A stretch of DNA of 14,827 nt, taken from the IMG/VR virus record IMGVR_UViG_2534681999_000018, positions 1 through 14,827 of that record, one strand, 5' to 3'. Position 1 is the stretch's first letter; the number at the start of each line of letters is the position of its first letter. Positions 232 to 11,580 of this stretch are shown here, one piece after another. This stretch comes from a virus (Duplodnaviria > Heunggongvirae > Uroviricota > Caudoviricetes). Position numbers and translations under genes: made by a program. The notes under the pieces are model-generated. The model worked only from the letters and a program-made list of their open reading frames with translations. It ran no database searches and had not been told where the DNA came from.

Positions 232-449
232 GTTTTGCTGATGCGCCGTATCGTCACCGTATTCCTGCATTAACAGAGACCGCAGCCCGACAGGGAGACT
301 CCTCTGCGAGAGTGTGCGGGGATAATCAAAAACGATACACACCGGGGTTTACCGCGTTAACGGAGCGCGGTGTTGTCCCCTCATAGTCGCCAGTCCGGTG
401 CGATGGTGGAAGAAACTGGATTTTGTTGCAAATGATAATCATTATCATT

Positions 450-520
450 TTTGCGGGTCCTCCTGGTGGGGTGGGCCTGAACACGGGGCGGGCGGGCGCG
501 GAAAAAGGCGCATTTTTGTG
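450..520. other. Putative cos site of the resident prophage (cosQ/cosN-like GC-rich block between Rz and Nu1)
   Basis: CGGGTCCTCCTGG (about 454-466) and ACGGGGCGGGCGGGCGCGG (about 482-501) resemble the satellite cos at 11511-11558 but differ in the cosN core; position between lysis and Nu1 genes matches lambda. Confidence 0.45.
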
Positions 521-686
521 ATTTTATCGTCATCATCATCATGATGGTAACTTGTTGTTTTTAATGCTGTTAGTATTAAAAAGATGATGATTGTGGTTGT
601 TTTTTGTTCGACATCTTTATATGGCGGCATTTCTTTACAAAAAAACAGAGTCACTTCTGTTCTGCGGTTTATGTGGAGGGATGTAA

Positions 687-1163
687 ATGGACGGCGAGCT
701 GAAAAATATGAAGTTAAATATTAATCAACTGGCAGCCCTTTCAGGTCTGCACCGGCAGACTGTTGCCGCCAGAATGGCGGATGTTCCTCTTGCACCAGGC
801 AGTAATGAAAAGAAAAAACTGTATCTCCTGACGGATTTGATAACTTCGTTGCTGGAAAAACCACCATCTTCCGAAGATGAGGATATGGATCCTCACGCTC
901 GTAAGGCATGGTATCAGTCCGAGCGCGAGCGTCTTAAATTTCAGCATGAAACTGTTCAGCTTGTGCCAGTCAGTGATGTCAGGCGGTCCTTTTCTGTCGT
1001 GGTGAAAGCGATAGTTCAGGTACTGGAAACCTGGCCTGACCGGCTGGAGAGGGACAGGGGGTGGACTGCATCACAACTGAATGAAGTACAGATTGTGGTT
1101 GATGAGATCCGCGACACACTGGAAAAGGCAGTCATTGACTGTTGTGATGAGGCCGATATGTGA
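687..1163 (+). CDS. Terminase small subunit, Nu1 family (resident prophage)
   Basis: 158-aa ORF with GGAGGG Shine-Dalgarno upstream; N-terminal MKLNINQLAALSGLHRQTVAARMADVP resembles the lambda Nu1 winged-HTH; stop overlaps the next start (ATGTGA); sits after cos and before terL as in lambda. Confidence 0.7.
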   Translation: MDGELKNMKLNINQLAALSGLHRQTVAARMADVPLAPGSNEKKKLYLLTDLITSLLEKPPSSEDEDMDPHARKAWYQSERERLKFQHETVQLVPVSDVRRSFSVVVKAIVQVLETWPDRLERDRGWTASQLNEVQIVVDEIRDTLEKAVIDCCDEADM

Positions 1164-2167
1164 ATCAGGTGAACGAGAGCCATAGCCGCGCATCCGATAT
1201 CTGGCGCGAAGTGGCCTCGCTGTTTCGCCCACCCAGCCGGTTACCAGTAGCGGAAGCCATCAGGCGTTATATGCGGGTTCCACGGGGAGCCAATACTTCC
1301 GGTCCGTGGGAGTCATCGCTGACGCCCTATATGATTGACCCCATTAATACATTATCAGCCCGTGAATATGACGCGGTGGTGTTTGTGGGACCTGCGCGAA
1401 CCGGGAAAACCGAAGGGCTGATTGATGGCTGGATTGTGTACGGCATCATCTGTGATCCGGCGGATATGCTGGTGGTGCAGATGACTGAGACGAAGGCGCG
1501 TGAGCATTCCAGAACGCGTCTTTCCAGGACGTTTCGCCACAGTCCGGAGGTCAGCAAGCGCCTCAGTCCTTCCCGTAATGACAACAACGTCCACGATAAA
1601 ATGTTTCTTGACGGCTCCTTCCTGAAGATTGGCTGGCCGTCGATCACCGTCTTTTCCTCTTCGGATTACCGTCGTGTGGCGCTGACGGATTATGACCGTT
1701 TCCCTGAAAATGTGGACGGGGAAGGGGATGCCTTCACGCTGGCCTCAAAGCGTACCACCACCTTTATGTCCTCGGGGATGACCCTGGTCGAGAGTTCACC
1801 GGGGCGGGATATCACCGATACCAAATGGCGTTGTGGTGGCGCACATGAGGCACCGCCAACAACGGGGATCCTGTCACTGTATAACCGGGGAGACCGCCGC
1901 CGGTGGTACTGGCCGTGTCCGCACTGCGGGGAATATTTTCAGCCGGTGATGGATAACATGACCGGATACCGGAATAACCCGGATTTTGTGGCTGCCGGTC
2001 AGGCTGCCCGTCTGATGTGTCCGCATTGTCGCGGGCTGATTGCCCCTGAGCAGAAACGCGAACTGAATAACCAGGGGATCTGGCTTCGTGAAGGTGAACG
2101 GGCGGCGGCGGACGGCAGTATCACCGGAACGCCACGAAACTCCCGGATTGCGTCATTTTGGATGTAG
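1160..2167 (+). pseudogene. Terminase large subunit (GpA family), N-terminal ~half only; 3' truncated at the junction with the integrase element
   Basis: 335-aa ORF starting at GTG; Walker A-like GPARTGKTEG and CPHCGEYF...CPHCRG zinc-ribbon-like motif align with the N-terminal ATPase region of lambda gpA (641 aa); ORF stops about 160 bp before the integrase start. Confidence 0.65.
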
Positions 2168-2328
2168 GGTACATTTCTTACCTGTTTGTATGTTCTGGTG
2201 TCGTTTCATAGTCTTTTCAATGAGTTGTGATTTTATGAGTTTCCTCTCTTTGCTTGATAATGAGTTAGTTTATCGCTTGTTATTGGCTTGAATGGACTAC
2301 ATGACGGACTAAAAAATGAGGGCGATAG

Positions 2329-3567
2329 ATGTCGGTAAAGCCATTAACCGTGACTGAAGTTAAGGGGATGAAACCACGTGAAAAGGACTATGCCGTTTAT
2401 GATGGGTTCGGTTTATTGCTGAATGTGAGTAAAGCCGGTGGGAAAGTGTGGCGTTTCCGTTATAGCCATCCGATAACGAAGAAACGGCAGACATACACGA
2501 TAGGACGTTTTCCTGAATTCTCACTCGCGGAAGCACGGGAAGTACGTGATGAACTTCGGCGAATGATTGCACGTGGAGTTGATCCAGTGACGGAGAAGAA
2601 AAATCGTAAAATTGAGATGTCACTAAAAAATCTACAGACATTTGAAGCTGTTGCTAATGCATGGTTCGCTTTTAAAAAGGGATCTGAATTGCGGAAACCT
2701 ACGCTGTATAATATCGAATATGAAGTATACAAATATCTTGTTCCTTTCTTTGGTAAGTACAGTATAGAAAAAATTACAGCACCAGTAGCTATTAATGCTC
2801 TGGATGCCGTATCCGATAAGAATGCGTTGCAAAAAAAATTAATATCAAGATTAAATGAAATTATGAATTATGCTGTAAATTGTGGAGCATTGAAAGCAAA
2901 TCCATTACTTAAGATAAAGACTGCATTCACAGGAAAGAAAAATAAATCATTAGCAGCACTACCTGTTGAAAGATTGCCTGAATTTCTGAGCTGGTGGGAT
3001 AGTGTGCCTCATACCTATCAAATAGCTCATAATGCACTTTTATTCCAGATATTGACAATGGTCAGGCCAGGTGAGGCGATTAAAGCAGAGTGGTCAGAGA
3101 TTGATTTTGATTCTGGCTTGTGGATTATCCCCGCGCATAAAATGAAATGCCATCGTGAACATGTTGTTCCCTTGTCATCACAGGCTATTAGTATCCTCAG
3201 AACAATGCAGGAAATAAAAAGAGGGCGTTATGTGTTTTTTTCCTCCAGAACAAAAGATGCGCCTATGGGGAGGAATACTATCAAGACCCCAATTGCTGCC
3301 AGTAAGTTCAAAGGGATTGTAACGTTACATGGTTTTCGTTCAATGTGGAGTACGCTTTTAAATGAGGAGGGATTTAACCCCGATGTAATCGAGGCTGCAT
3401 TGGCGCATAAAAGTGGTGATAAAATAAGAGATATTTATAATAGAACTATTTATCTAGAACAGCGTAAGATCATGATGCAATGGGTCGGTGATTTTTTTGA
3501 TGATGCGAGAAAAGGGGTAATTAATAGATCCGGTGGTATGAAAGGTTTAAGAGTAGTAAATGGTTGA
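2329..3567 (+). CDS. int: Tyrosine integrase, P4-type (N-terminal arm-binding DUF4102-like domain plus catalytic domain)
   Basis: 412-aa ORF; catalytic-domain motifs including HGFRSMW (H-x-x-R) and a C-terminal tyrosine region (KIRDIYNRTIY); gene is visibly AT-rich relative to flanks. Confidence 0.92.
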   Translation: MSVKPLTVTEVKGMKPREKDYAVYDGFGLLLNVSKAGGKVWRFRYSHPITKKRQTYTIGRFPEFSLAEAREVRDELRRMIARGVDPVTEKKNRKIEMSLKNLQTFEAVANAWFAFKKGSELRKPTLYNIEYEVYKYLVPFFGKYSIEKITAPVAINALDAVSDKNALQKKLISRLNEIMNYAVNCGALKANPLLKIKTAFTGKKNKSLAALPVERLPEFLSWWDSVPHTYQIAHNALLFQILTMVRPGEAIKAEWSEIDFDSGLWIIPAHKMKCHREHVVPLSSQAISILRTMQEIKRGRYVFFSSRTKDAPMGRNTIKTPIAASKFKGIVTLHGFRSMWSTLLNEEGFNPDVIEAALAHKSGDKIRDIYNRTIYLEQRKIMMQWVGDFFDDARKGVINRSGGMKGLRVVNG

Positions 3568-3580
3568 GGAGGTTCAGCAA

Positions 3581-10707: not shown

Positions 10708-10719
10708 CGGGGGGATTCT

Positions 10720-11055
10720 ATGGACACTCCATACATTGAGTTATTTGCAGGCAGTCAGCAGGTATCCACGACGTTGGTACATTTTGCCGCTGATGCTGGC
10801 GTTATTCAGGAATTTACCCCGCTGATGCTGGCAGACAATGGCGAGTTTAAGCCGTGGGATGGTCAGGAATCTGGCAAGGCTGTTTATCTGACCTCGTACC
10901 CTGTGGACACGTCAAAGCAGAAATCAGCACAGTGTTACAAGACGGGGATATTCAATATTGCCGCCGTTAACTGGCCTGAGAGCGTCGACACCGATGCGAA
11001 AAAATGCGCCGCCTTTGCGGGTTCCGGCGTATCCGTTCAGCCGCTGGCCCGATAA
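10720..11055 (+). CDS. Head decoration protein, lambda gpD family
   Basis: 111-aa product (lambda gpD is 110 aa) with TPLMLA, YKTGIFN, WPE and AAFAG segments matching gpD; GGGGGG RBS. Confidence 0.85.
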   Translation: MDTPYIELFAGSQQVSTTLVHFAADAGVIQEFTPLMLADNGEFKPWDGQESGKAVYLTSYPVDTSKQKSAQCYKTGIFNIAAVNWPESVDTDAKKCAAFAGSGVSVQPLAR

Positions 11056-11067
11056 GCAGGGGGAACG

Positions 11068-11481
11068 ATGGCAACGAATGAAAGCATCATGACGCTACCG
11101 CTGGCGAGTAAATTTAAAGTCGAAGCGCGGGCAATGGCTGACAGAGGTTTATCAACCTATGAGGCCGTATATCAACTAAACAAACTGGAAGAGCAGGACA
11201 AGCCGTGCGCTGATGCGATTATGGCGCTTCATGAGCATAAAGACTATCAGCCGCTGTTGCGTGCAATGGCAAACGTGCCTTGTATCGATGTTGGTACGGC
11301 TAAAAGCATCCTTAGCATGACCATAGAGCAGGAACGTCCGAAGGTTGCGCCGGAACTTACCGCAGCCTTTGAAAACTTTATGGACATGCACAGCCCGCAA
11401 GCCGTATCAGCTGGCATGGCATACGATGGCAGAAACCAGGGCGATGACGGCGACATCGATCGCATACTGAAAACCATCTGA
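11068..11481 (+). CDS. Hypothetical protein in the capsid/packaging module
   Basis: 137-aa ORF with AGGGGGAA RBS; no recognisable motif; between the gpD-like gene and cos. Confidence 0.55.
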   Translation: MATNESIMTLPLASKFKVEARAMADRGLSTYEAVYQLNKLEEQDKPCADAIMALHEHKDYQPLLRAMANVPCIDVGTAKSILSMTIEQERPKVAPELTAAFENFMDMHSPQAVSAGMAYDGRNQGDDGDIDRILKTI

Positions 11482-11486
11482 GACAA

Positions 11487-11509
11487 GGCCGGAGAAATCC
11501 GGCTTTTTT
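11487..11509 (+). terminator. Rho-independent terminator, copy 3 of the repeated motif
   Basis: GCCGGAGAAATCCGGC hairpin followed by 6 T, identical to the copy at 8850-8873. Confidence 0.75.
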
Positions 11510-11510
11510 A

Positions 11511-11580
11511 CGGGTCCTTCCTGGAATTATGGCCCGTTACGGGGCGGCGACCTCGCGGATTTTCGCTATTTATGAGCCTT
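11511..11580 (+). other. Lambda-type cos site, copy 1 (cosN GGGCGGCGACCT at about 11542-11553)
   Basis: CCCGTTACGGGGCGGCGACCTCGCGGATTTTCGCTATTTATGAG matches the recalled lambda cos junction (…CGTTACG|GGGCGGCGACCTCGCGGGTTTTCGCTATTTATGAA…) almost base for base; lies about 150 bp upstream of the Nu1-like gene as in lambda. Confidence 0.8.

Follow-up and report, generated by a model that had tools for sequence, protein, structure and literature searches.

A prophage cos and a satellite cassette with two facing cos sites in one viral DNA record

The window analysed here, a virus record of 14,827 nt taken at its full length, contains three cos sites from two packaging systems, as revealed by alignment and a pattern scan. 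One is the cos of a lambdoid prophage. The other two face each other in a phage-inducible chromosomal island (PICI) of the kind integrated between roxA and phoQ in Escherichia coli, and they flank a gene for a small terminase subunit (TerS). The best explanation, which we consider probable, is that a prophage cos stands beside a PICI packaging cassette of the form cos1-terS-inverted cos2, in which cos1 is the private site of the satellite, cos2 is a copy of the cos of its helper, and the flanking prophage is not that helper. Coordinates are collected in Table 1; labels such as L002 denote individual loci used for comparison.

The window was scanned with a pattern joining cosQ to the left half of cosN (GGGTCCT-N15-35-GGGGCGG), with 200 dinucleotide shuffles as the control, and alignments were made to a lambda cos junction rebuilt from NC_001416. 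The pattern matched at 455–491 and 11512–11547 on the plus strand and at 12415–12450 on the minus strand, and nowhere in the 200 shuffles. At each site the GGGTCCT heptamer aligns with lambda cosQ and lies about 20–25 bp 5' of cosN. Both element sites carry a 12-nt cohesive end, GGGCGGCGACCT, with CG flanks, identical to that of lambda; the prophage copy at 483–501 keeps the left half and both CG-containing flanks, with 11 nt between the flanks. An earlier note on this DNA had reported two cos sites, at 454–501 and 11511–11558. Both are real and the strings quoted lie at exactly these coordinates. The element cosN is lambda-identical, as the note had it, and so is its cosQ, but a third site, the inverted copy at 12376–12451, had been missed. 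Together with 11511–11586 this copy forms a pair of inverted arms of 76 nt, 91% complementary, on either side of terS.

The inverted site, cos2, has a complex cosB laid out as in lambda, with R3 and R1 in one orientation and R2 inverted, spaced near +53, +114 and +155. Its three R elements read TCAGATCC and lie at +52–59 (R3), +113–120 (R2, inverted) and +152–159 (R1), while those of lambda (CGTTTCC) lie at +53–59, +114–120 (inverted) and +155–161. The flanks of all three elements are common to lambda and cos2, and the cores have changed together. Besides these sites, the 8-mer TCAGATCC has one further copy in the whole window. The left end of the records of phage 434 and Perceval aligns to window position 12420. 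A copy of the cosB of phage 21 or phi80 was considered and rejected, since prophage 4 of strain CFT073, which is of the 21 type, has CATGTCGG and phi80 has CGTTTCC. The TCAGATCC type is distinct from the R types of lambda and phi80, of 21 and of N15. A short hairpin between R2 and R1 (12270–12300) seems, by eye, to be kept by paired changes (GGCATTTTAGCCAGAAAATGCC, GGTCATTCTGGGCCAAAAATGACG; compared in the window, L016 and lambda +125 to +150).

An exact search of IMG/VR with the cos2 R3 string returned satellites only and no phages. The matching phage family was found by a looser IMG/VR scan for the pair of R2 and R1 cores, which returned 62 loci. About 35 of these are lambda-like prophages with cosQ, cosN, the same three R elements, a Nu1 homolog (51–61% identical to lambda) and a gpA homolog (65–73%); the remaining loci are satellites with the arrangement of the window. 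The prophages have one identical TerS N-terminal DNA-binding domain (MNVNKKKLADIFGVDVRTITAWQSQG...), combined with C-terminal domains of three types. R3, which was outside the search pattern, shows 95% identity between the satellite and phage consensus sequences, and the spacers 61–69%. Phage cos regions of the TCAGATCC type occur in a few hundred of 5,426 genomes. The same comparison was made for EcCICFT073, the PICI of CFT073, whose cos2 has the R element ATGTCCGGTT: at least 85 prophage loci have that cosB, followed by terS and gpA homologs. The two sets of matches indicate that cos2, in one satellite type as in the other, reproduces the cos of an actual phage at full length, a statement that we did not find in the searchable literature.

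The other element site, cos1, has the exact cosQ and 12-base cosN of lambda and most of the next 33 bp, and its likeness to lambda ends at about +45. The block that follows, from +48 to +68, is conserved in satellites whose TerS is 80–100% identical to that of the window. It resembles N15 R3, GAGGTTGTTGTT, at +48–59, and the conserved GGTGGTGGTTTTGTTGTT stands at the place of N15 R3. cos1 has a single block at the R3 position, which gives it a simple cosB like that of N15, where cosB is one R3-type site of GTT repeats near +48–59 (Feiss 2015, PMC4669245). It differs from N15 in that its cosN is that of lambda. Two further features were seen at this site. A terminator-like hairpin, GCCGGAG(A/C)AATCCGGCTTTTTT, is present in three copies (8846–8875, 9210–9239 and 11483–11512), the last of which abuts the cosQ of cos1; the hairpin also stands ahead of cos1 in CFT073 and ahead of the first cos copy in L002. 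In addition, the (GGT)n run of the TerS-type cos1 (11586–11599) and its complement CACCACCACCAC in an Rpp-type cos1 (L005, 17601–17613) lie at equal distance from cosN, and CACCATCACCACCAC is likewise seen in the first cos copy of the satellite embedded in L002.

The protein encoded between the two sites belongs to the Nu1 family, with a Pfam Phage_Nu1 score of 82.6 bits against a cut-off of 30. It aligns with lambda Nu1 over residues 6–166 (BLASTP, 36% identity, E 1e-33), and the alignment takes in the counterpart of the gpA-binding tail, the final 40 residues of Nu1. Among phage proteins N15 gp1 is closest to it (44%), and in the GenBank phage collection no phage protein reaches 60% identity to it. 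Over its first 55 residues it is 52% identical to N15 gp1 and 39% to lambda, and in the recognition-helix region (SATAFDKWGVTPVE vs SVQAFDKWGVQPVE) it is nearly identical to N15 gp1 (AFDKWGV). The description of this protein as lambda-like throughout is therefore right for the full-length homology, the gpA-binding region included, and wrong for the N-terminal 55 residues, which are closer to N15. The C-terminal domain sets it apart from both phage proteins, being 41–44% identical to them and extending 12 residues past their ends. The gene is present in 766 of the 5,426 complete E. coli genomes. An inverted repeat, ATACACCAAC-N14-GTTGGTGTAT, lies directly 5' of the start codon (11650–11684), and its left arm alone is conserved in more distant satellites. 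An inverted accessory site inside terS, as in N15, was sought and none was found.

A second lineage of satellite TerS (194 residues, e.g., L024) combines a 21-like DNA-binding domain with a 21-type R3, GCATGTCGG, in its cos1, and its C-terminal domain is 71–74% identical to that of the window protein, including the extra tail TTGNVPEKL-Q-KGE. Satellite TerS proteins (L024 8773–9357, L015 and L017, compared with the window) thus fall into at least two groups with unrelated DNA-binding domains (N15-like or 21-like) and one C-terminal domain in common. The comparison of the two lineages indicates that the DNA-binding domain and cos1 change together and that the C-terminal domain is specific to satellites. 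This shared domain may dock on one type of large terminase subunit (TerL). The C-terminal domains of the L028 and, by eye, the L075 types resemble it, and each type is found in phages with a cos that matches the cos2 of a satellite.

By gene content and order, the element is a known type of PICI, the O-island 51 family of O157:H7, with a full-length TerS in the slot of Rpp. Gram-negative PICIs of the EcCI type have an integrase, AlpA, a replication module and unidirectional genes in about 10–15 kb, lack tail and lysis genes, and have cos near the right end; the element has this gene content and order and is collinear with EcCICFT073. The two occupy the same roxA-phoQ locus and have in common the order replication genes, single-stranded DNA-binding protein, PerC, gpE-like gene, gpD-like gene, 137-residue gene, cos1, one gene, inverted cos2 and 93-residue gene, with 90–95% DNA identity over the capsid and cos1 region. 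In both, the inverted cos pair surrounds one gene, which encodes the 144-residue RppA in EcCICFT073 (confirmed by a hit to 6HLK, the structure of RppC, E 5e-31) and the 180-residue TerS in the element. The sites differ along with it: cos1 has (GGT)n-TTTTGTTGTT at +45–68 in the element and GACACCACCACCAC in EcCICFT073, and the R cores of cos2 are TCAGATCC and ATGTCCGG, respectively. The satellite may encode capsid, decoration and scaffold-like proteins, whereas EcCICFT073 reportedly uses phage-sized heads. The 93-residue protein downstream of cos2 gave no PDB or Pfam match.

EcCICFT073 and EcCI042 were reported to correspond to O-island 51 (PMC6092414). EcCICFT073 has two functional lambda-like cos sites, both of which work on plasmids (Fillol-Salom 2018, PMC6092414; 2019, PMC6739421). 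Its cos1 is needed for transfer by lambda and phi80 and is stimulated by RppA, deletion of cos2 raises transfer, and only the deletion of both sites abolishes it, cos2 being able to support plasmid transfer. In those reports a phage cosB was recognised in neither site and the purpose of having two was left open. We take the published cos1 to be the site upstream of rppA and co-oriented with it, after the cos-rpp layout of Murialdo and Feiss.

Several points weigh against the reading of cos1 as a private site and cos2 as a helper copy. Cleavage, binding and transfer at the cos sites of the window are predictions from sequence. The likeness of cos1 to N15 R3 is short and offset, with the GTTGTT part about 9 bp farther from cosN than in N15. 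Since the R2 and R1 cores were the search pattern, their invariance among the 62 loci is partly by construction. The closest phage relative of the TerS C-terminal domain, of the L028 type, is 56–58% identical, and TerL compatibility is hence a prediction. A TCAGATCC-type prophage was not evident in the O157:H7 genomes that carry the island, which is probably without a resident helper there. The TerS-encoding islands of IHE3034 and 18098, noted in 2018, were not mobilised by resident prophages, and no helper was found for them (PMC6092414). Finally, no complete E. coli genome (n = 5,426) covers 80% of the window at one place.

This last result bears on how the prophage and the element came to be joined. 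Window 1–5102 is 99.84% identical to L002 (a locus of strain 57_142493), and window 4882–14827 is 99.98% identical to L001; the roxA-phoQ island of many O157:H7 genomes is 99.98–100% identical to the latter segment. In L002 a satellite with the same integrase interrupts the terL of a lambdoid prophage; beyond it the rest of terL, coding for the C-terminal part, and the portal gene follow. The prophage had been described as truncated, and the match to L002 shows instead that its terL was split by an insertion. Insertions of this kind are published as helper-embedded PICIs, including sites in cognates of lambda gene A (Tommasini, Mageeney and Williams 2023, PMC10111431). The intact form is present in L002, and its satellite carries the cos of the host prophage. 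The window has only the left end of that type: its right end and packaging cassette come from a phoQ-site PICI. We thus identify the left third (1 to about 5100) as a helper-embedded PICI in prophage terL and the remainder as a phoQ-site PICI, by identity to the two loci. That prophage and element are neighbours is therefore no sign that the one is helper to the other.

The ends of the element are accordingly mismatched. Its left end lies in terL and its right end beside phoQ, so that the two do not fall in one prophage late gene, and the 21-nt core CGGTGTAGTTAATGGTGTAGT occurs only at 13260–13280. No left att copy matching it was found in the window, where the longest repeat joining the two ends is 8 nt. 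With such ends (2165–2329 and 13260–13280; L002 14165–24570) the element could not excise as a unit. The junction at 4300–5800 together with both flanks was not found in complete E. coli genomes. The region 4544–5800 is contiguous in other PICIs, e.g., that of E. coli 042, which points to mosaicism. Because its ends are mismatched and no complete genome contains the whole window, the element is best described as a chimera, formed either by recombination of two satellites or during assembly. In the former case, two resident satellites would have recombined within a common segment of 221 bp. The latter, in which the junction joins reads across a repeat common to two satellites and reflects no real chromosome structure, is somewhat unlikely in our estimate. 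It would account for the missing genome match and for the halves mapping to different loci of the same O157:H7 genomes with an overlap of 221 bp. However, the two parental satellites of the O157:H7 strain NCCP 13918 lie in opposite chromosomal orientation, so that a single crossover would give exactly the window structure through inversion. Such inversions are common in the O157:H7 lineage. The window also has accessory and regulatory genes of the sort usual in these islands: a PerC-family regulator (8571–8843), a BRO-N domain protein (3844–4422) and an Icd-like division-inhibitor gene (4917–5114).

Whatever the origin of the junction, the cassette itself can be read in more than one way. The satellite TerS might behave like Rpp, forming mixed oligomers with the helper TerS and blocking phage packaging with no TerL binding of its own, a reading we regard as fairly unlikely. 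It sits in the rpp slot, and its central and C-terminal region is related to the oligomerisation regions of phage TerS proteins (44–58% identity). Yet Rpp proteins are 139–154 residues long, are without a TerL-binding tail and must borrow the TerS of the helper (Murialdo and Feiss, PMC9026076), whereas the satellite TerS is of full length, its alignment reaching into the 40 C-terminal residues with which Nu1 binds gpA. No similarity of the satellite TerS to RppA (BLASTP, E 3.4) or RppC could be detected, and no protein of the window matched RppC 6HLK in a search of the PDB. The 93-, 137-, 180- and 158-residue proteins of the element had been tried as candidates for Rpp; they matched neither RppC nor a Nu1 domain in the PDB and were dropped after the comparison with CFT073.

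The cos of the flanking prophage is situated between the lysis gene and terS; it shows 99.4% identity to the corresponding stretch of VT1-Sakai and 92–97% to several Stx2a phages. By these matches 454–501, within a larger cos region at 431–650, is the cos of a lambdoid prophage of the VT1-Sakai/Sp type. It shares with lambda a 16-nt palindrome, ATGATAATCATTATCA, upstream of cosQ, then cosQ itself and the left cosN half (ACG followed by GGGCGG), which upholds the claim that this block is cos-related; the right half differs. Past the left half, 11 nt (GGGCGGGCGGG) lie between the ACG and CGCGG flanks, and the same interval in lambda and the element holds the 12 nt of GGGCGGCGACCT. Binding of TerS to the cosB-like region at 502–650 is predicted. 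No match to the prophage-type cohesive-end string was obtained in a full-text literature search. At the place equivalent to the Fur-box-like palindrome of the prophage (Table 1), lambda has GATGATAATCATTATCAC (lambda 48446–48463; L004 446–463). The palindrome is also present upstream of cosQ in the L075 prophage and absent from both satellite cos sites, and we know of no described role for a near-consensus Fur box beside cosQ.

The terminases of the prophage and the element differ as well. The prophage TerS is a DUF1441 protein that gave no BLASTP alignment to lambda Nu1 or to the element TerS and thus falls outside the Nu1 family as defined by the Phage_Nu1 gathering score and C-terminal homology. 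Profile searches, however, match its residues 4–156 to the Nu1 profile phrog_57 (E 1.8e-10), and the element TerS reciprocally matches phrog_141, by which the prophage TerS and Nu1 are remote homologs over most of their length. The picture of a lambda-like N-terminal helix-turn-helix (HTH) joined to an unrelated C-terminus is not supported. The TerL fragment of the prophage, though of the gpA family, has only 24% identity to lambda gpA. The intact satellite embedded in L002 has two copies of the cos type of its host prophage and neither terS nor rpp, and one copy matches about 200 bp of the prophage cos, the cosB region included. This supports a general rule that the satellite cos follows the helper, and it makes the flanking prophage the partner of the left-hand parent and not of the packaging cassette in the window. 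By its terminase and cos types, the flanking prophage is probably not the helper for the cos1-terS-cos2 cassette, and the view that the packaging module of the element is not that of the prophage is sustained.

The earlier note had drawn this conclusion partly from the cosN core. On that version it is the difference in the core that fits the element to a lambda-type helper and shuts out the prophage beside it. We think this improbable as the determinant. The cores do differ between conserved flanks (11 nt vs 12 nt), and with TerL families 24% identical, cosN preferences could differ. In lambda-like phages, however, natural and engineered changes at cosN positions 7–12 have little effect, and the terminases of lambda and N15 are without cosN specificity; it is in the R sites of cosB and the recognition helix of TerS that specificity resides (PMC4669245). 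The emphasis on the core was thus probably misplaced, and the core probably does not set helper specificity. The cosB regions and TerS DNA-binding domains of the prophage and element differ completely. Moreover, the prophage-type copies themselves vary: the G/C core between ACG and CGCGG is 11 nt in the prophage (486–496) and 11 nt (GGGCGGAGGGG) or 10 nt (GGGCGGGCGG) in satellite copies (L002 21189–21199 and 23726–23735, and L047). A match of the element to a lambda-type helper is nonetheless supported by its cosQ and cosN, its Nu1-family TerS and the cos2 R type of prophages that encode Nu1 and gpA homologs.

Equally doubtful is the idea that cos1 alone matters and that cos2, left over from a duplication or a captured phage end, has no function. 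It draws on EcCICFT073, where deletion of cos2 raised transfer and RppA stimulated only cos1, and on the orientation of cos2, which faces away from any terS gene. On the other hand, satellites whose TerS proteins have diverged (49–100% identity) all keep the three R cores at the same spacing while the spacers drift, and the cos2 of EcCICFT073 supports plasmid transfer, with transfer lost only in the double deletion. That the terS segment is an invertible switch, as inverted repeats of 76 nt and 91% identity could allow by recombination, is highly improbable and was rejected, given that the capsid gene, terS and the 93-residue gene are co-oriented in 15/15 related satellite loci and that inversion would not yield the phage-like order of cosB and terS.

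Returning to cos1 as the private site and cos2 as the helper copy, the following mechanism may be proposed, in which the pairing of proteins with sites and the identity of the helper phage are inferred. cos1 combines the cosQ, cosN and I2 of lambda with one block of the R3 type, similar to that of N15. This block would be bound by the satellite TerS through its winged-helix domain, which is N15-like, and the C-terminal domain of the same protein would bring in a lambda-like helper's large terminase for the cutting of cosN. Recruitment in this manner would be the cos counterpart of the TerS strategy of Staphylococcus aureus pathogenicity islands (SaPIs), and an alternative to Rpp. cos2, as a full copy of the cos of a lambda-like prophage family, could be used by an unmodified helper terminase. 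As the two sites face each other, packaging would proceed in opposite directions round the concatemer, in each case as far as the next copy of the starting site. If both sites of one unit were cut, a 0.9-kb terS piece would be freed, which may, speculatively, explain the gain on deletion of cos2 in CFT073.

Among the SaPIs, pac islands have their own TerS, and cos islands such as SaPIbov5 copy the cos of the helper (PMC6739421, PMC6092414). The element cassette would hold both strategies, a private TerS with a private site and a copied helper site, and both would act by cos cleavage, whereas the proteins and hosts of the two groups are unrelated. For the purpose of two sites, we offer a tentative answer, which we rate slightly below even: cos2 is a complete helper cos, cos1 is the site read by Rpp or TerS, the satellite TerS proteins are domain-swapped chimeras with a matching cos1, and TCAGATCC marks a distinct specificity.

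Table 1. Positions of the prophage, satellite and host features in the window
Feature	Position	Strand	Details
3' end of prophage lysis (Rz-like) gene	1–231	+	"lysis protein" annotation in 99.8%-identical L002
Fur-box-like palindrome just 5' of prophage cosQ	428–446		2 mismatches to GATAATGATAATCATTATC; 0 matches expected by chance
Prophage cosQ, spacer and variant cosN core	455–501	+	cosQ 455–461; ACG 483–485; GGGCGGGCGGG 486–496; CGCGG 497–501
Prophage cosB-like region	502–650	+	ATCATCATC 532–540 (+47); inverted copy GATGATGAT 583–591 (+98)
Prophage small terminase, DUF1441/phrog_141	687–1163	+	Pfam E 3.8e-48; PHROG E 6e-66; weak phrog_57 match
Prophage large terminase, N-terminal 335 codons, gpA family, interrupted by satellite insertion	1160–2167	+	GpA_ATPase E 6e-82
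Tyrosine integrase of terL-inserted satellite (helper-embedded PICI type)	2329–3567	+	Annotation and context in L002
AlpA-like HTH regulator	3581–3784	+	Annotation in L002
Segment common to both parental satellites, probable crossover region	4882–5102		Overlap of L002 and L001 matches, 221 bp
RepA-family helicase, replication module	6301–7701	+	RefSeq annotation of identical O157:H7 island
Lambda gpE-like major capsid protein homolog	9652–10707	+	Pfam Phage_cap_E E 5.5e-50; counterpart of EcCICFT073 c1499
gpD-like head decoration protein homolog	10720–11055	+	Pfam HDPD E 5e-18
137-residue protein, residues 46–119 like C-terminal part of head maturation proteases (scaffold-like)	11068–11481	+	phrog_1999 E 1.7e-68; phrog_53 E 4.7e-9
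Element cos1	11511–11610	+	cosQ 11512–11518; cosN 11542–11553 GGGCGGCGACCT; lambda-like I2 to 11586; then GGTGGTGGTGGTGGTTTTGTTGTT (+45 to +68)
Satellite Nu1-family small terminase, 180 residues, in EcCICFT073 rppA slot	11687–12229	+	Pfam Phage_Nu1; BLASTP
Element cos2, inverted	12229–12451	-	cosQ 12444–12450; cosN 12409–12420; R3 core 12362–12369; R2 core 12301–12308 (inverted); R1 core 12262–12269
Conserved 93-residue satellite protein, phrog_1561	12485–12766	+	PHROG match
attR core of phoQ-site satellite, CGGTGTAGTTAATGGTGTAGT	13260–13280		21-nt direct repeat at both ends in L001
Host gene phoQ	13367–14827	-	Genome comparison and annotation

In the main, these results rediscover a known system, a PICI of the EcCICFT073/O-island 51 type with its published dual cos, beside a published kind of prophage-embedded satellite. 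That the cos of a prophage differs from that of a satellite is ordinary by itself. What may be new is that cos2 can be viewed as mimicking in full a distinct packaging specificity of the lambda-like kind, and that the satellite TerS proteins can be viewed as partners of cos1 with swapped domains. Should the dual-site reading be true, cos2 and the C-terminal domain of TerS would allow the helper phage of each island to be predicted from its sequence. It would also bear on the spread of islands that carry virulence regulators (PerC, RgdR) among Shiga-toxin-producing E. coli.

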